NCBI GenBank assembly: GCA_964572155.1
Contig: CAZNDZ010000001.1
Coordinates: forward strand, 79,300-143,299
Length of the DNA stretch: 64,000 nt
Direction: 5' to 3'
Source: an uncultured Planctomycetales bacterium
GTDB lineage: Bacteria > Omnitrophota > Gorgyraeia > Zapsychrales > Fredricksoniimonadaceae
Below, piece by piece: positions 21,435-63,981 of the stretch. The notes below the pieces were generated by a model. The model was not told where the DNA came from and made no database searches. It worked only from the letters and a program-made list of their open reading frames with translations. The first letter of the stretch is position 1, and each line of letters begins with the position of its first letter. The position numbers were made by a program, and so were the translations under genes.

Positions 21435-22181
21435 GTGTATAATTTTTTAAAATTTATGAATGAACTCTCTGTAATTATCCCTGCATATAATGAAGCCGCG
21501 GCCATTAAGGGCAACGTAGCGCTCGTCGTTCAAAAACTTGACGCCTTAAAGATATCTTATGAAATCATCTTAGTCAATGACGGGTCTACAGATGATACCT
21601 TGGCCGTCATGCGCACGCTACAAAACCACAACATCCACATCATCACCTACCCGATCAATCAAGGTAAAGGCCATGCCGTTAAAAGTGGCATGATGTCGGC
21701 TAAGGGAAAATTTCACCTCTTTATGGATGCAGACCTCTCGACTTCGCTTGAGAGCATCGGTATTTTTATGTCGCATATGCGCAACAATGAATATGATCTT
21801 ATCTTAGGTGAACGCGTATCTTCTACCAAACACCGACGGCTGCATCAACCGTTTTACCGCATTTTGCTTGGAAAAATATTTACCGGCTTGTCTCGACTTT
21901 GCGTTGGCCGCATGATCAATGACTTTACCTGTGGCTTTAAAATACTAAATAGCGACGCGTCTCGACTATTATTTTCCCAACAGCGCATCAAACGCTGGGG
22001 CTTTGACACAGAAATCATTTATATCGCCATTCGAAATCGCCTGCGCATCGGCCAAATCCCCGTCATGTGGAACCATCACCCTAATTCTAAAGTGCATGCC
22101 TTAAGCGCTGTCTTTACATCCCTTGGTGACTTGCTTTATATCACTTATAACGGCATCACCGGTCAATATTCCCGTCGGTGA
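21435..22181 (+). CDS. GT2 glycosyltransferase, polyprenol-phosphate sugar synthase-like (DPM1/GtrB/ArnC type)
   Basis: 248 aa; SVIIPAYNEAAAI...ILVNDGSTDDT...DADL DXD motif. Confidence 0.75.
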   Translation: MYNFLKFMNELSVIIPAYNEAAAIKGNVALVVQKLDALKISYEIILVNDGSTDDTLAVMRTLQNHNIHIITYPINQGKGHAVKSGMMSAKGKFHLFMDADLSTSLESIGIFMSHMRNNEYDLILGERVSSTKHRRLHQPFYRILLGKIFTGLSRLCVGRMINDFTCGFKILNSDASRLLFSQQRIKRWGFDTEIIYIAIRNRLRIGQIPVMWNHHPNSKVHALSAVFTSLGDLLYITYNGITGQYSRR

Positions 22182-22190
22182 ATTAAAATC

Positions 22191-22210
22191 AGACGCCATA
22201 AATGGCGTCT
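22191..22210. terminator. bidirectional rho-independent-type hairpin between convergent genes
   Basis: agacgcca-taaa-tggcgtct 8-bp perfect stem; T-rich tract on the minus-strand side; sits between the GT2 stop (22181) and the stop of the last gene of the long minus-strand array (22211). Confidence 0.5.
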
Positions 22211-22531
22211 CTACTTAACAATACTGCCGATGGCCACATCTTTTTCTGGCATGAGTAGCGCCATTTGTGTTTCATCAGATGCCGCCAACAACATCCCATT
22301 CGACGCCTCACCTCGAATAACCGCAGGTTCTAGATTGGCAATTAAGATAACTCGACGACCAACCAATTGTTCAATCGTATATGCCCGACGGATGCCAGCT
22401 ACAACTTGACGCACATCTTTGCCGGTGTCTACTTGCAACACATATAAACGATCGGCATTGGGATGTTCCTTGGCTTCTTTGATTTGAGCCACCACCAACT
22501 CGATCTTCTTAAAATCTTCCATTGTTGCCAT
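22211..22531 (-). CDS. tRNA-binding (Myf/EMAP-like, CsaA-type) domain protein
   Basis: 106 aa; KIELVVAQIKEAKEHPNADRLYVLQVDTG pattern. Confidence 0.65.
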   Translation of the reverse strand: MATMEDFKKIELVVAQIKEAKEHPNADRLYVLQVDTGKDVRQVVAGIRRAYTIEQLVGRRVILIANLEPAVIRGEASNGMLLAASDETQMALLMPEKDVAIGSIVK

Positions 22532-22532
22532 A

Positions 22533-24656
22533 CTAATCCTTTCGCTTCATTGCGGTTAAATATTGTCCTTGTGCATACGGGGCATAATTCTGCCTGATAT
22601 AGCTTACAATTGTCAATATGTTTGCATTGCTCTCCTTATAAGACGCTGGGTACACATCTTGCAAGAATACATTCTCGATAAAAACATAAGTTGGACGTTG
22701 ATCTGCCAATTGCGCTATGGTGTCTTTTAGAAAACTTGGGCTATGAGCGGCATCGGCTGGAAAATATCGAACACGCATGGGTTGTGAGGTCACCAGCGGC
22801 GTATGGTAAAAAAATGGGGCGCGCTTGGCTTGGATTAAAATCTTCGTCTCAAAACTGCTTAACAGCGCAACGCGTTCGTTAGAGCCAATTAAATCCGTAA
22901 TGAGTTTTGCATCTTTGGTAAAATCACTTTCTTGCTCGATAAAGCGGATCAATTGTTGATCATTTTTAAAACTGTCTTCCGTGGCTAAATGCTCATCCTG
23001 ATCACCGGCCGCATTCAACAATACCTTGTCTTCTTCTTTAATATGTTTGACCAAGTGATGGAAATAACCCTGCCGGTCTGGAAAACGCTGGGCTACCTTG
23101 ATGTCCGTCATTGGGTTCGCACTAAAATTAAAAACATTAGGATAACTGATGTAATTATGATTGGTAACTAAGGCATATAAAGCCAAGATTAGACAAGCCC
23201 ATTGCACTTTTTTCACATCGGCTGATTTTAATTGTTTTAAAATAATATGTACCCAAAACGCACATATCAAAACAAACGGAACAGCACTTAAATAATAGCT
23301 GGTCATCGCTGAACGCACGACAAAGTATTGATAATTAACCAAGCCATAGACGGCAATAACAACGCATAAGAAATATTTTCGGTCAATTTTCTTATGCCAC
23401 ATTAAAATAGAAAGCGTTAAAACTGTTGCCACATACAATAACGGCATGGCAAGTGCGATTAAACCCACCCAAAAATTACGATACTTTAAACTTTCAAACA
23501 TGGGTAAGGCCCCACGGCCAGTAGCAAAATAGCTCATATATTCAATGCAGTTCTTCCAGAATAGAGAACTAAATACATGCGCGCCCAATGTCATCCAGAA
23601 AAAGATAAAAGCAACCACCAGCGGTAATATGGCCACCCATAGGTGTTGTTTCTTTAAGTGGCCAAGTAAGAAAGCGCCCGCCATATAAAAATACAGGGTC
23701 ATAATGATGCAAATACCCGACGATGTCATATAATAAACAGCAAAACCGCTATAGGCAGCAGCGAGTATTAAAAATAAAATTCTGCCTGTTTGCAAATGTC
23801 GCCACAAAAACCATAACCAGACGATATCAAGGCCAAACCGGATGGGCGTTGAGGATGGGTAAATCCAACATAACGGGCTTACCCCATAATGAAACATTTG
23901 AAGACGAAACACCACCAAGAACGCCGCGAACGCTAGGATTGCACTGCCAAGCCAGACACGGGTAAAGCAATAAAAAAGGATAAAGTATAAAATGCCAAAT
24001 GCAACATTCATGCGTAAGAATGGCAAATAATCAAAACCACCGAATAGCACGCATAACTTAGACAATAAAACAGGTATGCCCACCCCATATTGGGAGATCA
24101 CATCCACATAAGGCAGCCCACCATAAACAGACGAAACACCTGGGGCCATTAAAAAGAAATCTAAGTGATGGGCTTGCTCGCCTATAAATATTTCAGCTAA
24201 GACGGCTTTTAAATTTGGGACATAAACAAATGCGGCGATCAACACACAGGCAATCCATGTTTGCCAAGGCGATAATGCTACATAGGCTTTTAAGACGTGC
24301 GTTTTAAGCTTAGGCATTTCTTGCCAAAATAATTTTAAGATGATGGCTAAGCCCAATAAAGACAACGTTGCTTTACTGGCAAGCCATGGGCTATTGTCAT
24401 AAATCGTGGCTTTAAAAACAGCGCTGACTAATAAAAATGTCACCACAGCCTCAAGGCCAACATACCACGCAGGCTTCTGGTCTTGGATCAATAAATAGAC
24501 TAAAACGGATGATGCAATAAAAACAACATACAAAATCGCATCATATGCATTTGAGGGCGTATTAAGTGCGCTTAATGCTTGGGCCATTAAGACCGTAACT
24601 TGAACGCTAAAGCATAATGCTAAAAAACTTCTGACGATTTTTTGTTTATCAACCAT
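22533..24656 (-). CDS. family-A large polytopic membrane protein (copy A1) with conserved C-terminal soluble domain; putative GT-C-like glycosyltransferase
   Basis: 707 aa; at least 12 TM; motifs ILKLFWQEMPK, GEQAHHLDFF...VISQYGVG, MFHYGVSPLCW, YPNVFNFSANPMTD, VALLSSFETKILIQAKRAPFFYHTP, YVFIENVFL, YAPYAQGQYLTAMKRK. Confidence 0.7.
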   Translation of the reverse strand: MVDKQKIVRSFLALCFSVQVTVLMAQALSALNTPSNAYDAILYVVFIASSVLVYLLIQDQKPAWYVGLEAVVTFLLVSAVFKATIYDNSPWLASKATLSLLGLAIILKLFWQEMPKLKTHVLKAYVALSPWQTWIACVLIAAFVYVPNLKAVLAEIFIGEQAHHLDFFLMAPGVSSVYGGLPYVDVISQYGVGIPVLLSKLCVLFGGFDYLPFLRMNVAFGILYFILFYCFTRVWLGSAILAFAAFLVVFRLQMFHYGVSPLCWIYPSSTPIRFGLDIVWLWFLWRHLQTGRILFLILAAAYSGFAVYYMTSSGICIIMTLYFYMAGAFLLGHLKKQHLWVAILPLVVAFIFFWMTLGAHVFSSLFWKNCIEYMSYFATGRGALPMFESLKYRNFWVGLIALAMPLLYVATVLTLSILMWHKKIDRKYFLCVVIAVYGLVNYQYFVVRSAMTSYYLSAVPFVLICAFWVHIILKQLKSADVKKVQWACLILALYALVTNHNYISYPNVFNFSANPMTDIKVAQRFPDRQGYFHHLVKHIKEEDKVLLNAAGDQDEHLATEDSFKNDQQLIRFIEQESDFTKDAKLITDLIGSNERVALLSSFETKILIQAKRAPFFYHTPLVTSQPMRVRYFPADAAHSPSFLKDTIAQLADQRPTYVFIENVFLQDVYPASYKESNANILTIVSYIRQNYAPYAQGQYLTAMKRKD

Positions 24657-25890
24657 GGCTCATCCAAAAATGTGGGTACGTCACCCAAACCCTGCTTGTG
24701 AGTAGCGCCAACACGGCCAATAGCACACACGCCGCATAAATGAACCTTGCTTGTGCCTTAAAAAATTTCTGTGTGCAGGCGTGTAACCACCATGCACTTA
24801 ATATGACCGCAGGCCAACATACAGCGCCATAAGCAAAAACGTTCGCATGCCCAATGTATCGGGTATAAATCAATAACCCATAAATGCTTAATATCGTGGC
24901 TATCCTATGCTTCCCCCACGCATTTAATAACGTAAAGACATAAAAGATAACTAACGCATAGCCCATGAAAAATGAAAAGAATTGTCGCACGCGTAATGCC
25001 GCAAACATCGGCAAATGCGTGGGATCTTTATAGAAACCAAAATCCCCCCACACATTGATCAACGTGTTTTGGGGATAGTTCCAGCACAGCGGAGACATGC
25101 CATAATGAAACAATGTCATGCGTATGACCACCACAACAACGAGCACAGATAACCACAGGTTTTGACACAAACGCTTCGTTATAACAAAAATGCCGATGAT
25201 AAGAATCACATTGATATAAAACAAAAACAATACAATTTGCTGCGCACTAAAACCTCTGGAAATTAAAAAGTTGGTCAACCCAAAAGCACGCCACTCTGAA
25301 AAATTACTCCATTGCGCAATGATCGACGTGCTCATCTCCACATTAGGATATAACCCAATCAAAACAACAGCAAAGAAACCCCCATAAACCAACCACGTAA
25401 ATTGTTTGGGCAAAACAGCATGTTGCCATGCTTGAAATAATTTCTTCGTCACCTTATCCACTTCTGGCCAGAATATCTTGCTAAGCAAACTCAGTGCAAC
25501 AACCCCATAGAAGAATGGATAAACCCATCGATTATTTTCTAGCGACAAGATGTTATAAAACGGGTATTGATAGGTAATCCATTTAAAAAACGTGAACAAC
25601 ATCAACACCAACCACATCACTTCTATCCACAAAAATTTCCAGCATTTCTTTAATAAAACCTCATCATCCAATCGTTTAAAAATAAACGCCGCGCCAAGCC
25701 CCAACACAAACGTCGTCGATAAAAATACCATGTAAAAAAAGCTTTCCCGTTCTGGTTCAAGCCCTGCCAACGCTGGGCCTTTGACGATGATGGGAATATA
25801 ACTATAAACATGAGCCACCATGCATAATAGTTGCAAGGCCTCAACGATCACAAGCGCTGTCAAAATTCCAATCGCCCTTGGATTAAACAT
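24649..25890 (-). CDS. family-A paralog truncated after the membrane domain (413 aa, no C-terminal soluble domain)
   Basis: PERESFFY, SKIFWPEVDKV and LFHYGMSPLCWNYPQNT motifs align to A-family N-terminal and TM regions; ends at the YP(H/N)FW junction; 8-nt overlap with A1 start. Confidence 0.6.
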   Translation of the reverse strand: MFNPRAIGILTALVIVEALQLLCMVAHVYSYIPIIVKGPALAGLEPERESFFYMVFLSTTFVLGLGAAFIFKRLDDEVLLKKCWKFLWIEVMWLVLMLFTFFKWITYQYPFYNILSLENNRWVYPFFYGVVALSLLSKIFWPEVDKVTKKLFQAWQHAVLPKQFTWLVYGGFFAVVLIGLYPNVEMSTSIIAQWSNFSEWRAFGLTNFLISRGFSAQQIVLFLFYINVILIIGIFVITKRLCQNLWLSVLVVVVVIRMTLFHYGMSPLCWNYPQNTLINVWGDFGFYKDPTHLPMFAALRVRQFFSFFMGYALVIFYVFTLLNAWGKHRIATILSIYGLLIYTRYIGHANVFAYGAVCWPAVILSAWWLHACTQKFFKAQARFIYAACVLLAVLALLTSRVWVTYPHFWMSHG

Positions 25891-27649
25891 TCGGCTTCCT
25901 TTTCATGGCTACTAAATATTTACCCTGAGATACAGGGGTATAGTAATACTTCACATAACGGATCACACGGATTAAATCTTCAAACTCTTCAAAATACCAC
26001 GGATGCACTTGCTCGGTTAAAAACACCGCTTCCATGAAAATATATTTAGGCTTAGCTTGATCCAGCTGGCTAATGATGCGCTCAATTTGCGGATAACTAA
26101 AAACCGTTGTGACCACAAAATTACGCATGCGCATGGGGTGCGAATTAAGCAACGGGAAAAAATAAAACAATGGTTTACGCTTTGCTTTAGATAAAATCAT
26201 CACTTCAAAACTGCTTAGCAACGCAACACGTTCATCGCTTTTTGTTAATGAAGCAATCATCCCTGCGTCTTCCTTAAAAGCTGTTTCCAAGCGGTAATGT
26301 GACTTTAATGCATCATGATTAACAAAATCCCTTTCGTATTTAAACTTCTCATCGACTTCACCCAAAGAATTAACTGGCACTTTAATCCAATCAGGAAAAT
26401 CAACAGCGAGCTGACCAAAATATGGTTTGCCTCCTGGGATTTTCATCGATACAGCGGGATCAACAACAGGATTCTTAGATGTATTGAGCAAATTCGGATA
26501 TGCCCGAAACATCGGTTCACTAATTAAAGCATAAATAGAAACGGCTAAGAGAATGCCTGTGATGCGAAACTGCCAAACCTGTGATTTTCTTTTAATGAAC
26601 TCATCTATGACTAAAATGGTGATAAACGTCATGGGCAAAGACACGGTTGAATATTTATGTGACATGCCAACAAAATACGTAAATGTGCCCAACCCATAAG
26701 CAGCCAACAAGACGATCCATATATCCCTTGCTGTCCGCTGTGGTGTTAAATATCGCCACCCATAAAAAAATGCACTGGCGCAGTATGCAACTGGAATTAA
26801 CAAGCCGACAATGACCATCCAATAATTACCCCGCGCGATGGGTGCTAGCATCGGACTATAAAAGAATCCTTTTGCAAAGTATGAAGCAAAACCTGCGGTG
26901 TTCTGCCAGAACAGCGACGTAAAGATATACGCGCCTACAACGCAATAATATAGGAATAGTACAACAATCGGGATAAAAATAACCGGACGTGAAAGACCAA
27001 TCGTGTGCAGCAACCCTTGCCACCCTTGTTTGATGATCGCATCTAGTGCCTTCATTCCTAAATAAACAATCATCGTAGAGAATAAAAATATCCCCATGGT
27101 CGGCATATGAAAAATGCCAAGCGCCACGGACAAAGCCATGAGCCACAGATAACGCGGCTTTTGATGCTTTTCATACAAAAACAAACTCCAGAAAAATAAC
27201 GCATCAAAATAAAATCGCAATACGGAACATTGAATGTCATTCCAAACAATGGGGATTAAGATTGAGACAAACATTTGAAAGCGCATGCCTAAGATAATGG
27301 CCGTTAAAGCTAAGATGGGATGATACAAAATCCTGCGTAATAAATAATACCATGCAATGAAATATCCAATGCCAAGCCAAAATAGAACAATGAGCGCATG
27401 GGTATAATCAAAACCCCCTATGATTTGCATCCCCCATTTGATCAGCAGGCTCAGACCAAAACCATAGGTCGTGTTAATATCAATATTAGGAACTAAGTCA
27501 CAGAACAATCCATAAATGGGCCCCATAAAGACCACATCCCAATCATGAAAAAAATCCCCCATGAACAATTGAGCAACTGTTGCCGTCGGATCAGGAATAA
27601 ATAAAATCAAAAATATAATGATCACTGCAGTTACATCTAACCAAAGCAT
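25883..27649 (-). CDS. family-A membrane protein (copy A2), C-terminal 588-aa portion of an apparently frameshift-split gene
   Basis: FMGDFFHDWDVVFMGP, YPNLLNTSKNPVVD, VALLSSFEVMILSKAKRKPLFYFFP, YIFMEAVFL, YTPVSQGKYLVAMKRK. Confidence 0.65.
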   Translation of the reverse strand: MLWLDVTAVIIIFLILFIPDPTATVAQLFMGDFFHDWDVVFMGPIYGLFCDLVPNIDINTTYGFGLSLLIKWGMQIIGGFDYTHALIVLFWLGIGYFIAWYYLLRRILYHPILALTAIILGMRFQMFVSILIPIVWNDIQCSVLRFYFDALFFWSLFLYEKHQKPRYLWLMALSVALGIFHMPTMGIFLFSTMIVYLGMKALDAIIKQGWQGLLHTIGLSRPVIFIPIVVLFLYYCVVGAYIFTSLFWQNTAGFASYFAKGFFYSPMLAPIARGNYWMVIVGLLIPVAYCASAFFYGWRYLTPQRTARDIWIVLLAAYGLGTFTYFVGMSHKYSTVSLPMTFITILVIDEFIKRKSQVWQFRITGILLAVSIYALISEPMFRAYPNLLNTSKNPVVDPAVSMKIPGGKPYFGQLAVDFPDWIKVPVNSLGEVDEKFKYERDFVNHDALKSHYRLETAFKEDAGMIASLTKSDERVALLSSFEVMILSKAKRKPLFYFFPLLNSHPMRMRNFVVTTVFSYPQIERIISQLDQAKPKYIFMEAVFLTEQVHPWYFEEFEDLIRVIRYVKYYYTPVSQGKYLVAMKRKPNV

Positions 27650-28101
27650 CGATTAATCTCACTATAAAATATTTTAATAAGGGCAGAAATAACTAAAACA
27701 CCATATAACCACGCCCACCAAAAAGATGACGTCGGTGTAATGGTTAGCTGAAATACAAAACCAATTTCAAGAACTACTAAAACACCATGCATCAATATAT
27801 ATCGAATGGTGCCGGAAACAAATGCGGCACGACTGAAGCGTTCATATAAGAAAATTGTCCCAAGAATAAAGAATGCTATTGCTAATGCCACACCTGCCAT
27901 ATATAACTGCAGCTCACGCTCCCCCAAGAAACCTTTGCGGTAATGAAAGAAAATATCCGCAAGCGCAGGATCTGGTTTGAATGGAATATGAAATGAGATA
28001 ATGCCCAAAAGAATCAGTACTTCAATTGCGGATAATATCGCAACAGCAATAATCAAGATTGCTTTAAAGGGCTCGAAATTATGGAAAATGCTTTGTTTCA
28101 T
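27637..28101 (-). CDS. N-terminal 154-aa fragment of the split family-A gene (copy A2)
   Basis: IKIFYSEINRCFG aligns to the (K/H)IFWPE motif of full-length paralogs; different frame, 13-nt overlap with the 25883..27649 ORF. Confidence 0.5.
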   Translation of the reverse strand: MKQSIFHNFEPFKAILIIAVAILSAIEVLILLGIISFHIPFKPDPALADIFFHYRKGFLGERELQLYMAGVALAIAFFILGTIFLYERFSRAAFVSGTIRYILMHGVLVVLEIGFVFQLTITPTSSFWWAWLYGVLVISALIKIFYSEINRCFG

Positions 28102-42552: not shown

Positions 42553-42875
42553 AGGGTAAAATATATGAACAATGTCATCTTAGTAAAAAAAGCTGCAACA
42601 TCACGGCAAGAGCCAATCTTACTCTCCTGCCACTGACGCAATTGTTTTTGTCGACGGGTAAGATCTTGATTTTCAAAGAAAGAAGCCGCACCAAATACGC
42701 CAGACCAATTAAAAACATAAATCACCATGATCATAAGCGTCCGCAATAAGGTCGGCATGCCCATGATCTTGCGGTATAATTTCTCTGCGGTTTGAACAAC
42801 GATGTGATGTTCTAAATCGCTGACATAGGCGGGACACAAAATGCCTTGTACAATACAGAAAATGATCTTATCCAA
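42534..42875 (-). CDS. small hypothetical membrane protein
   Basis: 113 aa; one or two hydrophobic segments; sits between the GMC gene and B3 with overlaps typical of coupling. Confidence 0.3.
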   Translation of the reverse strand: MDKIIFCIVQGILCPAYVSDLEHHIVVQTAEKLYRKIMGMPTLLRTLMIMVIYVFNWSGVFGAASFFENQDLTRRQKQLRQWQESKIGSCRDVAAFFTKMTLFIYFTLCPKKN

Positions 42876-51811: not shown

Positions 51812-51812
51812 A

Positions 51813-52328
51813 TCACCCGCCCGCTTCCCGACCAAGCAAAACTTGCATGCCATTTAAAATCATGGCAATGCTTTTTCCAGATGCTGTTAACATGTAGCGG
51901 CCATCTTTTTGAACCACGCACCCGCTTTGTTGCAATTCACCCATGCGCGTCCCAATGAAATTCTCTGCTTCAATGCCACGAACCGCATCATCAAATGTCA
52001 ACGTACTTTGCTTTTGTAGCAATAATAAGATTTTCTTAGATGGGCTCATCAGCTGCGTTAACACATAGAAGGTCAAATACGTTGGGATACCAAGGATATA
52101 AACAAACCCCGACGTAAAAATAAAGGGCAGCCCCCAAAATGTTTCAGGATTGATCCATCCACCGTGAGAAATCACAAGAGAACCTACAACATAAACACCA
52201 AAGAACGCACCGGCCATGAAGATAAATACTTTTGATTGAAGCCCTGCCGTAACGGTTTGGCGACAAAATATGATATGAAATGTCACGGCAAGTAAGAAAC
52301 ACAACAACGCAAAAACAAAATAAAACAT
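51813..52328 (-). CDS. membrane protein with C-terminal soluble domain; paralog of 51281..51811
   Basis: 171 aa; about 4 TM then SPSKKILLLLQKQSTLTFDDAV...GRYMLTASGKS. Confidence 0.35.
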   Translation of the reverse strand: MFYFVFALLCFLLAVTFHIIFCRQTVTAGLQSKVFIFMAGAFFGVYVVGSLVISHGGWINPETFWGLPFIFTSGFVYILGIPTYLTFYVLTQLMSPSKKILLLLQKQSTLTFDDAVRGIEAENFIGTRMGELQQSGCVVQKDGRYMLTASGKSIAMILNGMQVLLGREAGG

Positions 52329-55710: not shown

Positions 55711-55721
55711 GATGAAAAATA

Positions 55722-56513: not shown

Positions 56514-57380
56514 CTACGCCTTTCTGCCTTGCAAATGTGTCCATTTCTCTTTTGGGACACAAAAAATATTTGTGGTGATCTTTTGATTCTTATAAACATC
56601 TAACTCTTTACTTTTATCAAATGGATAAAACGTATCCGTCGCATGTTCATAGGTCAAAAAGCAATAGTCCAACTTTTCAAAATAATCCGTCAAGCGTTCC
56701 ATCAGGTTAGGATTGTGTTCTATCAAGATTGCAGGACGGGAAGATTTTATTGTTTTAACCAACCCTAAAAGTACTTCATCATCAAAACCTTCCGTATCAA
56801 TCTTAATGATATCTGGCTTTAAATTCAACTCATCAATCGGCAAAATATCAACCTTGTACTCCACAATCACAATGCTTTTATCTTTATCGTCGGGTAAATG
56901 CTGTTCGATCATCGTGGTTTGAACATAATCTTTGCGCAATGACGCGGCGGTATAGATGGGCACGCTGTTATAGATTGGTATATAGAGCGTCATCTGAGAT
57001 CTTTCACGTCCAGCGCCAATCAACTTATAGTCAAAACGCGGCAATCGCTTCTTTAACTTGCGTAGCGAACGCTCATGACACAAGTTTGGCTCAAGGGACA
57101 AAATGCGGTAATCGCTATGAATATGACGAAAACCAATGGCCGATATCCCATCATTCGCGCCAATATCCAAAAACAACCCATCCCCGGGATGCACCAAATG
57201 CATAAAGCCATAATAACTTTTATCATGAGGCAATAAGAACGGGATGTACTGAAAAAGGCGACGGCCAATAAAACCCGTATAAGGGTTATAGCGCAACAAA
57301 CGCGGGATCGCTGAATTGATCCGCCATAGGCGGATGATTTGTCGACGAAACTGACGGAACAATATTCTTAAACGGATCAT
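56514..57380 (-). CDS. FkbM-family methyltransferase
   Basis: LFLDIGANDGISAIGF (Methyltransf_21 motif); start MIRLRILF forms an ATGA overlap with the upstream gene stop; ORF extends to 57455. Confidence 0.6.
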   Translation of the reverse strand: MIRLRILFRQFRRQIIRLWRINSAIPRLLRYNPYTGFIGRRLFQYIPFLLPHDKSYYGFMHLVHPGDGLFLDIGANDGISAIGFRHIHSDYRILSLEPNLCHERSLRKLKKRLPRFDYKLIGAGRERSQMTLYIPIYNSVPIYTAASLRKDYVQTTMIEQHLPDDKDKSIVIVEYKVDILPIDELNLKPDIIKIDTEGFDDEVLLGLVKTIKSSRPAILIEHNPNLMERLTDYFEKLDYCFLTYEHATDTFYPFDKSKELDVYKNQKITTNIFCVPKEKWTHLQGRKA

Positions 57381-59062
57381 GTTTTTCCTATAAGTTCTCG
57401 GATCGTTAGAGCATCTGGATAAGGGTAAAGTTTTTGTAAATCCCACGTATAACAATATTCTTTGATCTTGTCTAAACCAGAACGTTCAAGGAATTCTAAA
57501 CACGGCTGATTTTTTTCTGTCTTCACATAATCCGCAACCAACAACCTCGATGTGGATTTTGCCAACACCACGGCTTTGGCCATCATAGCATCTTCTACAA
57601 AACGACCAAATACGCGGCAACTTAAAATAAAATCTTCAAGATACGCCGTATCAGGCCCAACGGATAAACCAATCATACCTGTCAATCCAGAATCACCTAA
57701 ATCATCTGACACCCGAAAAACAAACACATGACGGCCGGACATATTTGCCCACTGCCAATATTCTTGTTCTGTCATCCGTCGGGTTTTTAAATTCATCTGA
57801 TTGGTCTTATTGAGTAGTTGCACAGCCCTTGATAAATTCGACGAATCTAATGGCTCAATCGTTAAAACCATATGCAATGAAGTCAACCAATCTTTGACAG
57901 ACATGGCAGGTTGTTTTAAATCTTGACGTTTTTGTTCAGCCACATACATATCCGTGCGTTGCTTATCTTCCGTTGTTACAGCGACCATATCAAAATATGG
58001 CATGGCAGCTAAGGTTTGAGCATACAAATAATGTTCTGTTGGCCACGTCGGGACAGTGATATCAGCAATCGATGTTTTAATCCGATCTCGCTCAGCGGGA
58101 TGATCATCAATATAAACAGCCGCTGACGCAGGCAAATTTAATTCATTTAGAATATCAACGATGTTTTGGGCTTTATCCGACCAGTTAATGCGCCAAGCCG
58201 CAAAATCTTCTTTTCTTAGAATCATTTCTGGATGCGTGGTAATGGCATCCAATGCCGTGCTTTCATCGTTCTTACTAACAATGGCCAAAACAATGCCGCG
58301 TTGTCTTAAGATTTTAAGCTGACGTTGAAAATCAACAAAGGCTTCACCCGTTGCGTCATGCCCTCCAAGTTTAATATTGTTTTTGCCAAGATCGCCGAGC
58401 TCTCCACCCCAAAGCGTATTATCTAAATCAAGGATGATCAATTTTTTGGTTTGTCCGTAAAAAACGCCCAGTGTTTGTTTAATATCAATCGCCGCTGTTT
58501 TTAACACTTCCATGTCATATGGCAATTTGCTCACGTACCATAATTTTGGATTTACCGCTTTAGGACCTATGGCATGCAACCAATGATTAGGGTCTTTAAA
58601 GATCACATTTGGTGTATGTGTCAACGCATCAATCAACAACCCATTGGCCCTATGTAACCAGCGACGGACACCGTTTTGACTATAGTCCAACGGGCCTGTC
58701 CCACGATAATGATGTGGCAAGGCAAATAAACAAACAATCACATGTTTGACGCTTGCGGCCTTTTCTCTAATGTGACTCGCCAACGTTAGAACTTCTTGTT
58801 CGATCGACGACGGATTAACATCTTGAAAATTCATGAGCTTGGCTAAGGATGGCAAAATGCTCCACGGTTGGCACCATATCACCGCAAAATCTGAAGCATC
58901 ATCCCATGCAGGATGTTTTGGATTTGATAATGTTTGATATACCTGCCCAAATGGTAATGTTTTAATGGAACATGCAGGAGCCATGGCGAGGTTGTTCAAA
59001 TATCCAACCATGACATCACAATTAAAATCCGAAATGATTACACCTTTTAAACGCTCTTGCAT
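57377..59062 (-). CDS. FkbH-like / HAD-superfamily subfamily IIIC domain protein
   Basis: 561 aa; LIILDLDNTLWGGELGD HAD motif I, VSKNDE motif; N-terminal region as in FkbH-type proteins. Confidence 0.65.
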   Translation of the reverse strand: MQERLKGVIISDFNCDVMVGYLNNLAMAPACSIKTLPFGQVYQTLSNPKHPAWDDASDFAVIWCQPWSILPSLAKLMNFQDVNPSSIEQEVLTLASHIREKAASVKHVIVCLFALPHHYRGTGPLDYSQNGVRRWLHRANGLLIDALTHTPNVIFKDPNHWLHAIGPKAVNPKLWYVSKLPYDMEVLKTAAIDIKQTLGVFYGQTKKLIILDLDNTLWGGELGDLGKNNIKLGGHDATGEAFVDFQRQLKILRQRGIVLAIVSKNDESTALDAITTHPEMILRKEDFAAWRINWSDKAQNIVDILNELNLPASAAVYIDDHPAERDRIKTSIADITVPTWPTEHYLYAQTLAAMPYFDMVAVTTEDKQRTDMYVAEQKRQDLKQPAMSVKDWLTSLHMVLTIEPLDSSNLSRAVQLLNKTNQMNLKTRRMTEQEYWQWANMSGRHVFVFRVSDDLGDSGLTGMIGLSVGPDTAYLEDFILSCRVFGRFVEDAMMAKAVVLAKSTSRLLVADYVKTEKNQPCLEFLERSGLDKIKEYCYTWDLQKLYPYPDALTIRELIGKT

Positions 59063-60237
59063 TATTTATGCTCGACTTGACCCCAAAGGGCTTTAAACAT
59101 CCTATTAATTGGCTCTGGTCGCAGATGGCCAAAATCCACAAAATCTCTATCACTTAAACCCACATCTGTTGGGTTATATGACCCAAAAACTTTAATGCCC
59201 TTATCTTTAGCAAAATTACGCATCCATTGTTCTGAAATCTTAACCATTGGATATTGATCCGTTTGATACATGCGCTCAAAACTTGCCGTATAATACGGAG
59301 GAATATAAAAATATATTTCAACGCCTTTTTTCTGCAAAACGTCGATCATCTTAACAAAAAATGTTTGTAACATAGGATCAATGGCATAAAAATCTTCCAC
59401 ATTAGACATTCTACCATCGATGGCGCGCTTTTTCTCTGTCTCATCAACCTCTGCTATCGTCTTACCAAAAGCTTCGGGGATCACAATGCCAGAACCATCA
59501 GGACTTAAAAGCATGCCAAAGCCTTCTTTAACGCTATTATAATTCCATGTCAGCTTTGGTTCTTTTAATACTTCATATTCATTATAATCCCAAGGTGCTT
59601 GGCCCTTTCTCCATATAGAGAAGTTATACGTTGCAATCTCTGGATTAAATAGATTTGACGCACGCTCCCAAGGTATGTCTTTTAATACATCCTTGATTTT
59701 ATCGGTGAATGTCAGCGGCTTGCCTTCAAAAACGGAATTGATCATGTAATCATGATAAAATGCCAACTTCTGCCATTCATTGCGCGTTGAATCATCTGGC
59801 GCAACATTTAATAACCAAGGTTCTATGGTAAAAATCATACGTTTTGGAAAGCTAAGCTTATGGTACGCATAAACACCCACTAAACCTAAATAATCATGAA
59901 CGGAAGCGCCTCCAACCCATAGGTTTAGAAATGTTCCTTGTTCTTTGAAAACGTCTTTATTGAGATTTAAAATGCGGCTACTGCCTAAAATCACGGTATC
60001 GGCCACGGGATTGGCCTTGATCATGGCTTGTTTAAGATATCGATCCGCCCAATGTTGGGGACCTAAAATATACTCGCCTTTTTGCAAATGCCAGACAAAT
60101 TGGTCATAAATGCCTTTGGGTACAAACACATTAGCATAGTCAAAGCGTAAATTGAACCATGCCAGACTGCCCATGATGACAAAAAAAGACACAATGAGGC
60201 TGACCCCAAGAATCTTAATAGATCGTTTTTCAACCAT
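59062..60237 (-). CDS. DltD-like membrane-anchored SGNH-type protein (MBOAT partner)
   Basis: 391 aa; N-terminal TM anchor; VILGSSRI (DltD-like Ser motif) and C-terminal DFVDFGHL (D-x-x-H). Confidence 0.5.
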   Translation of the reverse strand: MVEKRSIKILGVSLIVSFFVIMGSLAWFNLRFDYANVFVPKGIYDQFVWHLQKGEYILGPQHWADRYLKQAMIKANPVADTVILGSSRILNLNKDVFKEQGTFLNLWVGGASVHDYLGLVGVYAYHKLSFPKRMIFTIEPWLLNVAPDDSTRNEWQKLAFYHDYMINSVFEGKPLTFTDKIKDVLKDIPWERASNLFNPEIATYNFSIWRKGQAPWDYNEYEVLKEPKLTWNYNSVKEGFGMLLSPDGSGIVIPEAFGKTIAEVDETEKKRAIDGRMSNVEDFYAIDPMLQTFFVKMIDVLQKKGVEIYFYIPPYYTASFERMYQTDQYPMVKISEQWMRNFAKDKGIKVFGSYNPTDVGLSDRDFVDFGHLRPEPINRMFKALWGQVEHK

Positions 60238-60262
60238 ATAATTTTTTGATATACTATATCAC

Positions 60263-61702
60263 ATGTTGTTTAATTCATTCCAGTTTCTTGTTTTTTTTAT
60301 CCTTGTTTTCGGCGTCTACCTGTTATGCACCCACCGTTGGCAGAATCGGCTCTTGCTTGTAGCTAGCTGTATCTTTTACGCATCATGGAACTGGAAATTC
60401 CTTTTTCTCATGGTCTTATCTATAAGCAATAACTACATTTGCTGCTGGTTCATGGGTCGCACTGAACAACCAAAAATACGCAAGTTTCTGCTCATTATTA
60501 GCCTTGTTATTAGCGTTGCCATCCTTGGCGTTTTCAAATATTACAATTTCTTTGCTGAAAATGTCACCGCATTAGTCAATGTGTTTGCTACCAGAGAATA
60601 TGTGCCGGTTTTTCTAAATATAGCCCTGCCTTTGGGGATTTCTTTCTATACATTTGAAGCCATGAGTTATTCGATTGACGTCTACCGCCGCACCGTTAAA
60701 CCCGCTGGCACCTATTGGGATTACCTTTTATTCGTCATGTATTTCCCTCATTTGATTGCTGGTCCTATCATGAGATTTGGAAAATTTGTGCCACAAATCC
60801 TCAAAGAACGCGAAATCACGTGGCCCAAAATTCACGATGGGCTGTATCTAACTTTCCTCGGACTATTTCAAAAAATGTTTGTAGCGGATAATCTTGCCAA
60901 AATTGTCAATCCCGTCTTTGGTCAAAGTACTAACGCTAATGGCGTTGACATCCTAATTGCCATGTATGCGTTTGCCTTGCAAATCTTTAGTGATTTTGCT
61001 GGATATAGCAATATCGCCCGTGGATTAGGGATGATGATGGGATTTGACATCGCTGTCAACTTCAATACCCCATTCTTTTCAACCAATGTTCAAGAATTCT
61101 GGAACAGATGGCATGTTAGCTTAGGACATTGGGTGCGTGATTACATCTATATGCCCCTTTTGGGTGGCCTTAAGATCGTCAAGGGCAATGGCCGCATTTA
61201 CTTGGCTTTGATTATTTCCATGACCTTGGTGGGTTTCTGGCACGGAGCACAATGGAATTTCGTTATCTTTGGTATCTACTATGGGATTTTGTTATCCCTT
61301 TATATCAAATTTATCAAAATGAAGTACGCAAATTTAATTCTACCCAAAAGCGCTTGGGGTAAAGTCTTATGGTTTTGGACCCGTGTTATTTTTATCTTCC
61401 ATGTTACAATACTTGCGACAACGATTTTCCGCTGTCAAACCATCCCACAAGCCAAACATATCTTTGCTGGCCTAATAGGAAATTTTCATCTTGCATCCAT
61501 GCAACCTTCGCTATTTTACAAATTGATTGGATTTGGGGCGCCCTTGATGATCTTGCAATGGATGGAATACCACACCAATAACATTTTCTTCCTCTTTAAA
61601 TATAAAAAACCAATTACATATAGTATCTTAGCATTAATGTTGTGGATGCTAATATCGTGGGGATCCGTGCGTCACGAAGGATTTATTTACTTCATCTTCT
61701 AA
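60263..61702 (+). CDS. MBOAT-family membrane-bound O-acyltransferase (DltB/AlgI-like)
   Basis: 479 aa; at least 10 TM; conserved His regions EFWNRWHVSLGHWVRDY and FWHGAQWNF. Confidence 0.8.
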   Translation: MLFNSFQFLVFFILVFGVYLLCTHRWQNRLLLVASCIFYASWNWKFLFLMVLSISNNYICCWFMGRTEQPKIRKFLLIISLVISVAILGVFKYYNFFAENVTALVNVFATREYVPVFLNIALPLGISFYTFEAMSYSIDVYRRTVKPAGTYWDYLLFVMYFPHLIAGPIMRFGKFVPQILKEREITWPKIHDGLYLTFLGLFQKMFVADNLAKIVNPVFGQSTNANGVDILIAMYAFALQIFSDFAGYSNIARGLGMMMGFDIAVNFNTPFFSTNVQEFWNRWHVSLGHWVRDYIYMPLLGGLKIVKGNGRIYLALIISMTLVGFWHGAQWNFVIFGIYYGILLSLYIKFIKMKYANLILPKSAWGKVLWFWTRVIFIFHVTILATTIFRCQTIPQAKHIFAGLIGNFHLASMQPSLFYKLIGFGAPLMILQWMEYHTNNIFFLFKYKKPITYSILALMLWMLISWGSVRHEGFIYFIF

Positions 61703-61704
61703 TT

Positions 61705-63228
61705 ATGTGGAATAAACATTTAAAAGTTGATACAGCCTCTATTGATGCCTTCGCAAAACTCAGCGGTGACTACAATAGCCTGCACATGAATGACGAACAG
61801 GCGAGAACCTATTCTTACCGTCAACGCGTGGCACATGGCATGTTGGGTGTCGGTCTTCTAATTCATTGCCCCTTACTTCACAATCGTTCGATCAAGAAAA
61901 TTGCTGGGCGTTTTAACCGTCCTATTTTTATTAATGACGACATCACCTTGCAGGTGACACCAGCGAGTAATGATCTTTTGCAATTCTCGATCGATGCCCC
62001 ATCGCAATCACAGCCGATCATGTCAGGGCAATTAACCCTTGGCAATCCATGCCCTCAAACCACAACTGTTGATTCACGCGCCTTGATCGATATCAAGCTC
62101 ACGGAGAACACCTATACAATCGACGCATTATCCAGCGGCCTAAAAGAAAGCTTTCCTTTCACATTATCATCAAAACTTTCTACGCTTGCAAATAATGCGC
62201 AAGTTCCTTTAGAAATAATCCCTGTGCTTTTATCTTCCACCATGGTCGGCATGCGCCTGCCTGGGAAATTAGCTACCTATATAGATTTTAGTTTTGAATT
62301 CTTAAAAGAATTTCAACATGGTGCATCCTGTCAGATGGAAGCCACCGTTAATTTTGTTTCCTTGTCCGCCGGTGTGATGATTGTAACAGTGGATGTTTTA
62401 TGTGAATCAACAAAAATTGCGCAAGGCAAACTCACGGTTAAGGTACAAGAACCAAGCAAACCTCTGCCCTCTTTTAACACCATTAAATCATCCGATGGGT
62501 CCAGTGAATTAGCAAATAAAGTCGCGCTCATCACTGGTTCAAGCCGTGGCATTGGCGCAACCACCGCTCGATTATTGGCTGCTAAAGGAGCCCATGTTAT
62601 TGTGAATTTCCATTCAAGTCATACCTTGGCAAAAGCGGTTGTCGACGACATTATCGACAATGGCGGCAAAGCGTTTGCCATCCAAGCGGATGTGAGTAGC
62701 CCTTGCCAAGTCACAGCCATGTTTGAGAAAATTGCGCAAACATGCGGTGGGATTGATATCTTAATTAACAATGCCGTATCCGACGCATTGCCTCAACCAT
62801 TTCAAACATTATCTTGGGAAGATCTTCAGAAAGATATTGATGTGACCGTCAAAGGGGCTTTTTTATGCAGCAAAATTGCCGTCGATCAGATGATCCGACG
62901 TGGTGGTGGGCATATTGTTAATGTCAGCACTGCCTATACCCAAGAACCGCCACCGAGCATGACCAAATATGTTGTTTCCAAAAGTGGATTGGTTGGTTTA
63001 AGCAAAAGTATGGCTGTTGAACTCAAAGCTAAAAATATATGCGTCAATATGGTTGAACCAAGCTTAGTTGAAACAGATTTATCAAAAGCTATCCCGCCGA
63101 TCATTAAAGAGAAAATGCGCAAAGAACAACCCAACGGAAAATTCCCCTCAACGCTGGACGTGGCCAAAGCCATTGCCTCATTGGTGTGCCAAAACGCTCC
63201 AACAGGACAGACCGTCGCTGTTAAATGA
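61705..63228 (+). CDS. fusion: MaoC-like (hot-dog) dehydratase domain(s) plus C-terminal SDR (FabG-like reductase)
   Basis: N-terminal FAKLSGDYNSLHMNDEQAR...HGML (MaoC motif); C-terminal VALITGSSRGIGATTA, YVVSKSG; start set at MWNKHL just after the MBOAT stop. Confidence 0.65.
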   Translation: MWNKHLKVDTASIDAFAKLSGDYNSLHMNDEQARTYSYRQRVAHGMLGVGLLIHCPLLHNRSIKKIAGRFNRPIFINDDITLQVTPASNDLLQFSIDAPSQSQPIMSGQLTLGNPCPQTTTVDSRALIDIKLTENTYTIDALSSGLKESFPFTLSSKLSTLANNAQVPLEIIPVLLSSTMVGMRLPGKLATYIDFSFEFLKEFQHGASCQMEATVNFVSLSAGVMIVTVDVLCESTKIAQGKLTVKVQEPSKPLPSFNTIKSSDGSSELANKVALITGSSRGIGATTARLLAAKGAHVIVNFHSSHTLAKAVVDDIIDNGGKAFAIQADVSSPCQVTAMFEKIAQTCGGIDILINNAVSDALPQPFQTLSWEDLQKDIDVTVKGAFLCSKIAVDQMIRRGGGHIVNVSTAYTQEPPPSMTKYVVSKSGLVGLSKSMAVELKAKNICVNMVEPSLVETDLSKAIPPIIKEKMRKEQPNGKFPSTLDVAKAIASLVCQNAPTGQTVAVK

Positions 63229-63981
63229 TTATTTGCTTAAGATGCAGGCATAATTAATAGCTTCATCACGCATGCCTTTGGTATGATCTTTGAATGATGC
63301 GGGTAAGATTAATTCTGAATGAATCTTAAAATATTTACTTAACATGTCGGTTACTTCTTCAGCTGTATTAAACAAATAAATATGATCGACATTAGCTGCA
63401 AAGATGGCTGTTGTTAAGAATAATACGCCATCATCTTTGAGCATTGCTTTTAGTTTCACCAACAATTCTTCAGGTTTTTCCAAGTGTTCCAAAAGTTCGC
63501 CGCAGACAATCAAATCGTACACCGGTGTATTTGGCAAATCAAAAACATTGCTTGTTGAAATATTCATCTTCGAGGACAAACGTTGGCTCGATGTTAAAAA
63601 TCGTTTAGAAAAATCAACGGCAATTCCGCTAATATCAAAAGCATCAAGGCGATCAAATTTTAAATGTTCCTGCATATGATATACAAATATCCCATCGCCG
63701 ATTGGAACATCCATCACCCGCGACGCCTTGCCAAGTTTCTTAATAAAATCTAAAAAGTACGTGCCAAACTTATAATGATTAGGCCAAAAGATTTGCGTAT
63801 ACAATAACCCATGCATATAGGAAGGCATGATATCTTTATTAAGGTATACCTTGTCCAAGACATCTGAAAAAGATGAGCTGGCATATGAACCTGTTTTGAT
63901 GAGTTGATTTTGTAAGACAAGATACTCTAATGATAACTTGATAAAGCTATCTAAACCTGCCGTTGATTCCTTGCCATCCAT
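63229..63981 (-). CDS. class I SAM-dependent methyltransferase
   Basis: 250 aa; DISGIAVDF, DLIVCGELLEHLEKPEELL. Confidence 0.55.
   Translation of the reverse strand: MDGKESTAGLDSFIKLSLEYLVLQNQLIKTGSYASSSFSDVLDKVYLNKDIMPSYMHGLLYTQIFWPNHYKFGTYFLDFIKKLGKASRVMDVPIGDGIFVYHMQEHLKFDRLDAFDISGIAVDFSKRFLTSSQRLSSKMNISTSNVFDLPNTPVYDLIVCGELLEHLEKPEELLVKLKAMLKDDGVLFLTTAIFAANVDHIYLFNTAEEVTDMLSKYFKIHSELILPASFKDHTKGMRDEAINYACILSK

Follow-up and report, generated by a model that had tools for sequence, protein, structure and literature searches.

A chromosomal cluster of predicted GT-C-fold membrane proteins in an Omnitrophota genome, a candidate line for envelope-glycan assembly or decoration

We analysed a stretch of 64,000 nucleotides (the window) from the assembly of an uncultured bacterium of GTDB lineage Omnitrophota (GenBank GCA_964572155.1, contig CAZNDZ010000001.1, positions 79,300 to 143,299). 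It carries a chromosomal gene cluster of about 48.5 kb, which extends from window position 21435 to the equivalent of ~69970, i.e. ~6 kb beyond the window end. With a probability of about 0.72 we read the cluster as a polyprenyl-phosphate-sugar-fed line for the assembly or decoration of a glycan, in which type C glycosyltransferases (GT-C) would work on the outer face of the cytoplasmic membrane. Gene order, family membership, the GT-C fold of two protein families, motif conservation, synteny and the missing Wzx, Wzy, ABC and initiating families were computed; functions were assigned throughout from homology and predicted fold. New are a GT-C family that has no curated model, a dense GT-C operon, a conserved pair of small membrane proteins and what looks like a hybrid acylation module. 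An initial annotation, made from the sequence alone, had proposed polyprenyl-phosphate-sugar donors, extracytoplasmic transfer, methylation, amidation and acylation. The gene families agree with this core, while the designations "complete", "Glf" and "DltD" were overstated.

The array and its predicted GT-C-fold families

All-against-all BLASTP divided the ten large membrane proteins of the window into two families, A and B, that are unrelated in sequence. They were kept separate because HHalign gave a probability of 18% between them. The initial annotation had listed ten GT-C-like membrane proteins. Fold prediction agreed with this, yet the ten belong to two unrelated families, with one member split and one truncated. 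Family A has seven window members (22533, 24649, 25883, 28098, 34460, 39212 and 53069, named by their first coordinate) and family B three. The features are given below with their lengths in amino acids (aa) and the evidence for each; L numbers here and later denote related loci and public contigs.

22533..24656 (-): family A predicted GT-C-fold protein, 707 aa, 29-34% identical to other family A paralogs, H-x-D motif present
24649..25890 (-): truncated family A paralog, 413 aa (BLASTP and alignment), membrane part only, lacking H-x-D and the C-terminal domain
25883..27649 (-): family A predicted GT-C core with the C-terminal domain, 588 aa, the larger part of a split gene, H-x-D present
27637..28101 (-): small membrane protein, 154 aa, equivalent of the four helices that extend family A at the N-terminus (alignment; BLASTP matches at the N-terminal ends of 39212, 28098 and 24649)
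28098..30488 (-): family A predicted GT-C-fold protein, 796 aa (BLASTP and alignment; no Pfam match)
34460..36679 (-): family A predicted GT-C-fold protein, 739 aa, the member with a predicted structural model
39212..41224 (-): family A predicted GT-C-fold protein, 670 aa (BLASTP and alignment; no Pfam or NCBIfam match)
53069..54931 (-): family A predicted GT-C-fold protein, 620 aa (BLASTP and alignment; no Pfam match)
31863..34460 (-): family B (YfhO-like) predicted GT-C-fold protein, 865 aa, Pfam YfhO above threshold
36642..39215 (-): family B (YfhO-like) predicted GT-C protein, 857 aa, Pfam YfhO 37.3 bits, 31-32% identical to the other two members
42868..45369 (-): family B (YfhO-like) predicted GT-C protein, 833 aa, Pfam YfhO 53.7 bits
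45373..45768 (-): small membrane-anchored protein, 131 aa (114 aa in other calls), one transmembrane (TM) helix, no family match, conserved in L008

No window member of family A matched a Pfam or NCBIfam model at E ≤ 0.01, and a profile of the family found no relative among PDB sequences. Domain fusions were sought in ten longer relatives (836-1166 aa), none of which contained a Pfam domain. The predicted fold of family A (22533, 25883 with 27637, 28098, 34460, 39212 and 53069) was the polytopic transmembrane fold of GT-C enzymes. The N-terminus is Lys-rich and forms four helices, which are followed by a charged amphipathic helix. An H-x-D motif lies after helix 157-179, between two short helices. 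Its residues H199 and D201 (GEQFHHND) did not vary among 41 sequences of family A, and six of the seven paralogs in the window have them. From the positive-inside rule we infer that the helix before the motif runs from inside to outside and that the loop is extracytoplasmic, where the active sites of GT-Cs lie. A polyprenyl-(di)phosphate-sugar as the donor is suggested by gene context, i.e. the presence in the array of glycosyltransferases of family 2 (GT2) that resemble dolichyl-phosphate-mannose synthase (DPMS) or ArnC.

A GT-C fold would also be compatible with family A proteins being non-transferases, such as a scaffold, a transporter or a lipid-binding subunit like PIG-U and GAB1, and with the cluster being a looser collection of envelope genes. 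We consider this very improbable. In the fold comparison of the family A model 12 catalytic GT-Cs outscored PIG-U and GAB1, the His-x-Asp is invariant in a predicted extracytoplasmic loop like a GT-C active site, and in many genomes family A genes regularly accompany genes of the GT2 synthase-like and YfhO-like kinds.

Two arrangements within family A point to subunits. The truncated 24649 is kept as a gene of its own in L045 (53% identity), L031, L012 and L017, where it usually lies directly upstream of the orthologue of 22533 (67% identity in L045). It is probably non-catalytic and possibly serves as a non-catalytic partner, by analogy with the heteromeric GT-Cs Pmt1-Pmt2 or EmbA-EmbB. The second case is the split gene, whose larger product 25883 aligns from about residue 170 to the end of the full-length paralogs. 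The overlapping two-ORF (open reading frame) arrangement of 27637 and 25883 is conserved in other metagenome-assembled genomes (MAGs; L007/L045 and L023), so the four-helix extension can act as a separate subunit. A sequencing frameshift was rejected as an explanation on the same grounds, the recurrence of the split.

The three members of family B (31863, 36642 and 42868) passed the gathering score of Pfam YfhO (PF09586). The best 17 fold matches of a family B structural model were all GT-Cs; a search against PDB sequences returned nothing useful. The window paralogs are 24-36% identical to one another, as compared to 53-78% to their positional orthologues in L007/L045. Since orthologue identity exceeds paralog identity, the paralogs are old and individually maintained rather than recent duplicates. 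We take this as evidence for an ordered pathway of distinct specificities rather than for an amplification in recent times.

A word-indexed search with the 34460 protein found 38 relatives, all of them metagenomic, and the sole one with a named source was Candidatus Omnitrophica. A hidden Markov model of family A detected 1,219 proteins at E ≤ 1e-3 among 1.84 billion representatives, 402 of them at E ≤ 1e-30. In a scan of one genome per GTDB species the family occurred at 42 loci, all in MAGs deposited as Candidatus Omnitrophota or "uncultured Planctomycetales". At the 42 loci there are 98 ORFs for full-length family A proteins and 23 for family B, grouped in arrays of three to eight, and the number and identity of the GT-C genes differ among them. 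The housekeeping flank directly after the array end was syntenic in nine loci with 45-93% protein identity; it comprises a CxxCxxCC protein, an LPG_synthase_C protein, RNase T, a PabB-like enzyme and an aminotransferase. Thus the organism is placed within the Omnitrophota lineage, and the array occupies a conserved chromosomal site. Its gene order is repeated in independent Omnitrophota MAGs, which excludes a chance arrangement.

The taxonomic labels of these MAGs deserve a remark. Several loci (L007, L011-L013, L017, L018 and others) were deposited as "uncultured Planctomycetales" despite an Omnitrophota-type locus and flank. Because synteny and flank proteins of 92-93% identity link the MAGs, one of the two labels is probably inaccurate.

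Proteins identical to the AsnB-type amidotransferase and to the MaoC-ketoreductase fusion of the window (see below) were present with the same neighbours in five independent public runs (SRR10036058, SRR10036059, SRR30545106, ERR15459718 and SRR26424594; L001-L005 and L048-L050, Logan assemblies). The 31863 protein was found on an NCBI contig of 1.34 Mb. Because five runs and an NCBI contig carry identical proteins, the organism is recurrent and a near-complete genome of it exists.

On the minus strand 29 consecutive co-directional ORFs of at least 100 aa run from 60237 down to 22211. The co-directional array of the initial annotation was thereby confirmed, its count of about 32 genes was not. 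Gene starts were taken from public assemblies with identical proteins (AsnB; MaoC-ketoreductase with the 61705 start). With these starts all junctions in the run are overlaps or gaps of up to 58 nt, the widest being 53010/53069. The predicted terminator of the run was borne out as a hairpin with an 8-bp stem including 5 G-C pairs, a 4-nt loop and a T-rich tail (GATTTTAATT).

22191..22210 (no strand): hairpin terminator, common to the convergent genes 21435-22181 (+) and 22211-22531 (-)
22211..22531 (-): tRNA-binding protein resembling the C-terminal domain or beta subunit of methionyl-tRNA synthetase (MetRS), Pfam tRNA_bind 103 bits

The last gene of the array, 22211, had been counted with the glycan genes. 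Instead it encodes a MetRS-beta-like housekeeping tRNA-binding protein (110.7 bits with TIGR00399, cut-off 116.65). In at least eight MAG loci (L010, L011, L024, L031, L035, L036, L045 and L047), whose GT-C arrays differ in composition, a MetRS-beta/Trbp111-like gene likewise comes last on the 3' side, with 66-90% identity. It is likely co-transcribed with the array, and probably is a conserved marker of the chromosomal boundary outside the glycan pathway.

Scans of the window for regulatory sites showed no enrichment of promoter-like sites over shuffled sequence (46 vs 58 ± 7 and 55 vs 55 ± 8), and terminator-like sites were marginally commoner (28 vs 21 ± 4). Apart from the hairpin at 22191-22210, no operon boundaries were drawn from these scans. 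The window contains zero tRNA genes and zero Rfam families. The G+C content is even over the window (0.38-0.45); on account of this and of the conserved syntenic site a recent horizontal acquisition was rejected.

Predicted donor synthesis, tailoring and acylation

Family assignment of the remaining genes was by Pfam and NCBIfam scans against the model cut-offs. The genes that may make and move the lipid-linked donors are the following.

21435..22181 (+): small soluble GT2, 248 aa, candidate polyprenyl-phosphate-sugar synthase, Pfam Glycos_transf_2 93 bits, no TM helix
50562..51284 (-): small soluble GT2, 240 aa, candidate polyprenyl-phosphate-sugar synthase, Glycos_transf_2 84 bits, no TM helix
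30485..31900 (-): two-domain protein, weakly GT2-like N-terminal half plus class I S-adenosylmethionine (SAM) methyltransferase, Methyltransf_11 70 bits at residues 269-358
51813..52328 (-): small membrane protein, about three TM helices plus winged-helix-like C-terminal domain, first of a pair, no family match
51281..51853 (-): small membrane protein, about three TM helices plus winged-helix-like C-terminal domain, second of the pair, no family match

The best NCBIfam matches of 21435 were PpgS and PgfS, both below cut-off. For 50562 the best PDB relatives were the dolichyl-phosphate-mannose (Dol-P-Man) synthase of P. furiosus (5mlz; residues 4-214, E 1e-12) and ArnC, with which it aligns along the entire catalytic domain. 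The earlier assignment of both proteins as similar to polyprenyl-phosphate-sugar synthases agrees with these matches, which are far below the equivalog cut-offs; neither protein is membrane-anchored. The gene 21435 is convergent on the array and stands next to the array end also in L045, L047, L035 and L036. A third GT2 had been assigned to the N-terminal half of 30485. It matched no Pfam GT2 model and was 23% identical to 21435 over 192 aa (BLASTP, E 5e-7), so that two of the three GT2 genes are well established and the third stands on this weak match.

The two small membrane proteins 51813 and 51281 are paralogs of each other (HHalign probability 97.5%) and lie immediately upstream of the GT2 50562. 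Such a pair is adjacent in 12 loci and typically heads GT-C arrays. Speculatively, the pair may be a flippase, or a membrane partner of the soluble GT2 of the GacJ/Rv3632 type, a small partner for which there is precedent (PMC8035078). Among the window ORFs of at least 100 aa and the genes of the next 6.7 kb, Pfam and NCBIfam revealed no GtrA, Wzx, SMR or MATE flippase. In the window and the same 6.7 kb there was likewise no Pfam match for an initiating phosphoglycosyl transferase, Wzx, Wzy, an ABC exporter, Wza or Wzc. The earlier statement that Wzx/Wzy, an ABC exporter and an initiating transferase are missing thus holds for the window and 6.7 kb further.

Interspersed with the transferases are genes for enzymes that could modify the sugars. 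Abbreviations used below are FAD for flavin adenine dinucleotide and SDR for short-chain dehydrogenase/reductase.

41221..42552 (-): GMC-family FAD oxidoreductase, candidate sugar oxidase/dehydrogenase, GMC_oxred_N 99 bits, GMC_oxred_C 69 bits
42534..42875 (-): small single-TM protein, 113 aa, no family match, upstream of the GMC gene in L006, L007 and L008
45714..47594 (-): glutamine-dependent AsnB-type amidotransferase, Asn_synthase 309 bits, TIGR01536 471 bits (above cut-off)
47601..48377 (-): classical SDR oxidoreductase, adh_short 134 bits
48381..49793 (-): FAD enzyme of the PRK07208 group, distant relative of UDP-galactopyranose mutase (UGM), NAD_binding_8 and Amino_oxidase
49805..50575 (-): TylF-type O-methyltransferase, 256-aa call, Pfam TylF 159 bits
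52333..53010 (-): class I SAM methyltransferase, Methyltransf_23 and Methyltransf_25, conserved in L034 (74%), L040 and L037
54931..55710 (-): SDR oxidoreductase, 259-aa call, adh_short_C2 130 bits
55722..56513 (-): SDR oxidoreductase, paralog of 54931 (39% identical)
56514..57380 (-): FkbM-family methyltransferase, Methyltransf_21 40.5 bits, TIGR01444 58 bits, both above cut-off
63229..64000 (-): class I methyltransferase, 305 aa, continuing ~146 nt past the window end

Most of these families had been named correctly, i.e. the GMC oxidoreductase 41221, the SDRs 47601, 54931 and 55722, the AsnB-type enzyme 45714 and the five methyltransferases (TylF-type 49805, FkbM-type 56514, class I 52333 and 63229, and one half of 30485). 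The closest model of 45714 was the XrtA/PEP-CTERM amidotransferase TIGR03108 (556 bits, below cut-off), and 56514 is conserved in six loci with 51-68% identity. The small protein 42534 probably is a membrane partner of the GMC oxidoreductase 41221, as judged from its position.

The case of 48381 is less clear. It scored 201 bits with NF005548, below cut-off, had no Pfam GLF match, and reached 52 bits with TIGR00031 (cut-off 304), with the N-terminal FAD-binding part alone. Its best solved relatives were UGMs of the eukaryote type (residues 6-458, E ~1e-10). The protein is best described as a UGM relative and not as a demonstrated member by sequence. The designation as a Glf-like mutase therefore fails the GLF and TIGR00031 models, although UGMs are the nearest solved relatives. 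The proposal of furanose donors depends on this designation and is weakly supported.

A set of genes around the divergent end of the array is predicted to form an acylation module.

57377..59062 (-): FkbH-domain protein, TIGR01686 270.9 bits (cut-off 146.65), TIGR01681 65 bits (cut-off 35.75)
59062..60237 (-): membrane-anchored SGNH/DltD-like candidate, 391 aa, DUF1574 23.5 bits (cut-off 29.1)
60263..61702 (+): MBOAT acyltransferase, DltB-like, Pfam MBOAT 76 bits, public start 60452
61705..63228 (+): fusion of a MaoC-type dehydratase and a FabG-like ketoreductase, 507 aa, MaoC_dehydratas 42 bits, adh_short 164 bits
59 nt past the methyltransferase gene, outside the window (+): carrier-protein-like ORF, 99 aa, GSTDSL motif, weak PP-binding match

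The FkbH, MBOAT and MaoC-SDR genes were confirmed as members of their families. The FkbH domain of 57377 (HAD-IIIC plus transferase region) exceeded the curated cut-offs, and the sole PDB relative of the protein was BF1531 of B. fragilis. FkbH enzymes take a glyceryl group from 1,3-bisphosphoglycerate and load it onto a free-standing carrier protein (PMC7489565); by analogy 57377 should charge a carrier protein with an acyl group derived from glycerate. For the MaoC-ketoreductase fusion a start at 61705 is probable rather than at 61642; the exact 507-aa product is encoded on nine public contigs. A lactyl carrier arises from FkbH, a dehydratase and a ketoreductase in the loading modules of bryostatin and FR901464, and by analogy the fusion could convert glyceryl to lactyl.

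The MBOAT protein 60263 scored best with the DltB model TIGR04091 (176 bits, cut-off 375). Its C-terminus (...GFIYFIF) contains the acyl-shuttle motif FxYxxF, a hexapeptide which is fused to the MBOAT in PatA-type systems and resides on the microprotein DltX in Dlt (PMC12148441). The adjacent, divergent 59062 is anchored at its N-terminus and shows a GSS around residue 85 and a D-F-G-H (DxxH) around residue 372. No PDB sequence matched, and the indexed protein database returned the protein itself alone, so the SGNH assignment rests on the motifs. It probably is an SGNH/DltD-like acyltransferase, while the earlier name "DltD" was not established by the sub-threshold DUF1574 match and the GSS and DxxH motifs. 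Taken together the module looks like a hybrid by analogy with both systems, with a carrier-bound donor as in Dlt, yet loaded by FkbH, and a fused shuttle motif as in PatA. Because it was not detected in those parts of related loci that were retrieved and 59062 has no homologue in the indexed database, it is apparently a strain-level accessory.

The DNA past the window was viewed on contigs with the identical MaoC-ketoreductase (window position = L048 position + 58223). It had been suggested that a carrier protein, a flippase and an initiating transferase might be located beyond 64000; the carrier is probably there, with a weak assignment, and the other two were not found in the next 6.7 kb. 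Three genes for polytopic membrane proteins follow the carrier-like ORF, a fourth YfhO-like one, a PMT_2-like one and one with 9 TM helices and no family match, before housekeeping genes (DUF502, an amino-acid permease and pyrF) resume at ~70.1 kb. The whole cluster thus holds up to 13 GT-C-type or polytopic candidates.

FkbH, TylF and FkbM were first described in macrolide pathways (role of FkbH in PMC7489565), and together with the MaoC-ketoreductase and the carrier protein they are typical tailoring or extender-unit enzymes of polyketide synthesis. A secondary-metabolite cluster for a glycolipid or polyketide-like product would account for them. Yet neither the window nor the next 6.7 kb contains a domain for ketosynthase, acyltransferase, condensation or adenylation activity, the acyl module goes together with an MBOAT that bears the acyl-shuttle motif of envelope polymers, and GT-C membrane proteins take up more than half of the coding capacity. 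We hold such a cluster to be the least probable of the explanations.

A proposed pathway and its relation to described systems

We favor the following sequence of events, for which we infer the donor lipid, the sugars, the flipping, the order of transfer, the acceptor and the acyl group. First, the soluble GT2s 50562 and 21435 would charge polyprenyl phosphate from a nucleotide sugar. In the cytoplasm the donors or the product may then be tailored by the UGM-like flavoenzyme, the three SDRs, the GMC oxidoreductase with its small partner, the AsnB-type enzyme and five or six methyltransferases. The lipid-linked sugars would be flipped across the membrane, with 51813/51281 as the candidate flippase or, alternatively, as the partner of the GT2. 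Outside, up to about a dozen GT-C-fold transferases would extend an envelope glycan, growing or already present, by one sugar each, i.e. six catalytic-looking family A proteins, four YfhO-like proteins and one PMT_2-like protein, to which the 9-TM protein past the window may add. Finally, the MBOAT and SGNH-like pair would acylate the glycan extracytoplasmically. The ester group, derived from glycerate, would be glyceryl or, once dehydrated and reduced, lactyl, and FkbH and the MaoC-ketoreductase fusion would make it on the carrier protein.

Several observations weigh against this scheme. There are two or three donor synthases for about a dozen transferases, and in the cluster we identified no known flippase family, acceptor or primer and no nucleotide-sugar synthesis gene. 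The Pfam YfhO matches span just the C-terminal ~65 residues of the model. The assignments of 48381 as UGM-like and of 59062 as SGNH-like are both sub-threshold, and the PP-binding match of the carrier-like ORF reached 14.8 bits (Pfam cut-off 20.8). In addition, no acylation genes turned up in those parts of related loci that were retrieved, and they may be unrelated to the conserved GT-C core. The description of the pathway as complete could not be upheld, given that flippase, primer or acceptor and nucleotide-sugar genes are not recognisable and that the cluster extends past the window.

The cluster might also represent a stack of systems that decorate side chains independently of one another, as do those of GtrABC or CsbB/YfhO type. 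They would act after polymerisation on a glycan that is made elsewhere in the genome, e.g. the O-antigen or core of lipopolysaccharide (LPS), peptidoglycan or some secondary wall polymer. All characterised bacterial YfhO and PMT_2 systems decorate (PMC8035078), the cluster has no initiating or polymerising enzyme, and the number and identity of the GT-Cs vary among the MAG loci as would those of surface-variation modules. On the other hand, such systems usually pair one GT2 with one GT-C, which differs from the ratio of two or three GT2s to about a dozen GT-Cs seen here, and the old, positionally conserved paralogs suggest an obligatory ordered pathway. We regard a stack of this kind as a serious contender, albeit one that is less likely than not.

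The multi-component transmembrane glycosylation systems in question are GtrA/GtrB/GtrC of Shigella and Salmonella and CsbB/GtcA/YfhO and GtlA/GtlB of Firmicutes (PMC8035078). Like them, the cluster combines predicted polyprenyl-phosphate-sugar GT-A/GT2 enzymes with polytopic GT-Cs predicted to act extracytoplasmically, with YfhO-like and PMT_2-like members. GT-Cs without any Pfam domain, as family A here, also occur among these systems. Yet the Omnitrophota cluster has about a dozen GT-Cs as compared to one, with seven of an unannotated family, its GT2s lack a membrane anchor, no GtrA, Wzx, SMR or MATE protein was detected, and the extensive set of tailoring enzymes and the host, which is neither a Firmicute nor an enterobacterium, set it apart as well.

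The same machinery might O-glycosylate secreted or surface proteins, like the protein O-mannosyltransferases (PMTs) of eukaryotes and actinobacteria or the Pgf system of S. mutans. A GT-C fold as modelled here would not discriminate between attachment to lipid, LPS, peptidoglycan or protein. Like Pgf (the GT2 PgfS, the membrane transferases PgfM1 and PgfM2 and the epimerase PgfE; compared by NCBIfam models only), the cluster contains a GT2, YfhO-related transferases and a sugar-modifying enzyme. The matches to PgfS, PgfM1 and PgfM2 were weak, all of them far below the equivalog cut-offs, and scale and tailoring differ. We consider protein glycosylation unlikely.

The favored reading, a line of GT-Cs fed with polyprenyl-phosphate-sugars, is reminiscent of mycobacterial arabinogalactan and lipoarabinomannan (LAM) synthesis, where many different GT-Cs outside the membrane use such donors. 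Redox modification of lipid-linked donors, as proposed here, and a small soluble PpgS-like GT2 are further parallels. However, there is no sequence relationship to Emb, Aft or Mpt, phylum and envelope type are different, and the mycobacterial genes are scattered whereas those of the window form one operon-like array. Window ORFs showed no UbiA or FAD_binding_4 match, i.e. neither a UbiA-type phosphoribosyltransferase nor DprE1 (VAO-type)/DprE2; the flavoenzymes of the cluster are the UGM-like 48381 with an amine-oxidase fold and the GMC-type 41221.

In the systems for extracytoplasmic pentofuranose addition by GT136, auxiliary SDR-type epimerases act on undecaprenyl-phosphate sugars and thereby diversify the donor prior to its export (Kelly et al. 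2024; PMC11127046). Shared features are a lipid-linked donor, as proposed here, a GT-C transferase and SDR-type enzymes. GT136 systems rely on a phosphoribosyl-pyrophosphate-dependent synthase and a MATE flippase, protein families that are both missing here, and they add a single side-chain sugar (PMC11127046).

With the MBOAT-SGNH systems (D-alanylation by DltABCDX; O-acetylation of the PatA/PatB or AlgI/AlgJ type; PMC12148441) the cluster shares an MBOAT beside a membrane-anchored SGNH-like protein. The C-terminal FxYxxF of 60263 resembles PatA, and the small carrier-like ORF nearby resembles Dlt. Unlike Dlt, an AMP-binding DltA is replaced by FkbH, and DltX is missing, with its shuttle motif fused to the MBOAT. 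A probable processing of the donor by dehydratase and ketoreductase, and an SGNH-like protein without detectable homologues (59062), distinguish the cluster from all of these systems.

Thus the cluster is not a member of the Gtr/CsbB-YfhO, mycobacterial arabinan or Wzx/Wzy/ABC systems. In agreement with the initial annotation, no described system of equal composition was found in the literature searched. The same literature contained no paper that links Omnitrophota to YfhO or GT-C systems, and none on FkbH with MBOAT, DltD or a polysaccharide that matches the cluster.

Flanking genes and significance

The first 21 kb of the window contain housekeeping genes, among others purH, a Mur-ligase-family gene (FolC-like), era, nth, aminotransferases, a chorismate-binding (PabB-like) enzyme and RNase T. 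Next to the array end, 20100-20978 (-) encodes a stand-alone LPG_synthase_C protein. This is the transferase domain of MprF, which depends on aminoacyl-tRNA, and the flippase part in the membrane is missing. The LPG_synthase_C gene overlaps that of a CxxCxxCC zinc/iron-binding protein at 20950-21426 (-), and the pair stands beside the array end in nine Omnitrophota loci. Since the pair lies near both the tRNA-binding gene and the envelope cluster, some component of the envelope might be aminoacylated.

Further upstream and separate from the glycan cluster, a radical SAM enzyme similar to lysine-2,3-aminomutase is translationally coupled to an ATP-grasp protein of the D-Ala-D-Ala-ligase family (5019-7252, -), which suggests formation and ligation of a beta-amino acid. 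The gene at 7294-8583 (-) combines PRC-barrel, MgtE_N and CBS domains without the membrane transporter domain of MgtE. Two proteins had no significant family match, i.e. 15612-16859 (-, 415 aa), with a marginal TSP_1 match, and 13275-14240 (-, 321 aa), which recurs in the syntenic flanks of L045 and L047.

GT-C enzymes work outside the membrane; in mycobacteria they serve as drug targets, and elsewhere they drive surface variation. New families are hard to detect by sequence. Family A, with 1,219 representative clusters, is predicted with confidence to have a GT-C fold, and neither Pfam nor NCBIfam has a model for it. To our knowledge the density of GT-Cs in one operon is unusually high. The combination of FkbH, a carrier and an MBOAT with a fused shuttle suggests a hybrid acylation route.

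Omnitrophota are mostly ultra-small, uncultured bacteria. The cluster provides a handle on their envelope chemistry, of which the literature searched discusses only genes for peptidoglycan precursors. Tentatively, and with considerable doubt, one may envisage that Omnitrophota build a major envelope heteroglycan or lipoglycan wholly outside the membrane, by about a dozen operon-encoded GT-Cs and independently of the mycobacterial arabinogalactan/LAM logic. This would involve a GT-C family found to date in this lineage alone (a prospective new CAZy family), a heterodimeric flippase from a new family of small membrane proteins, and an acylation route not described before, with an MBOAT-SGNH pair fed with glyceryl or lactyl groups by a carrier that FkbH loads. 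If the product were indeed the main surface glycan, it may bear on the host attachment that has been proposed for these nanobacteria.

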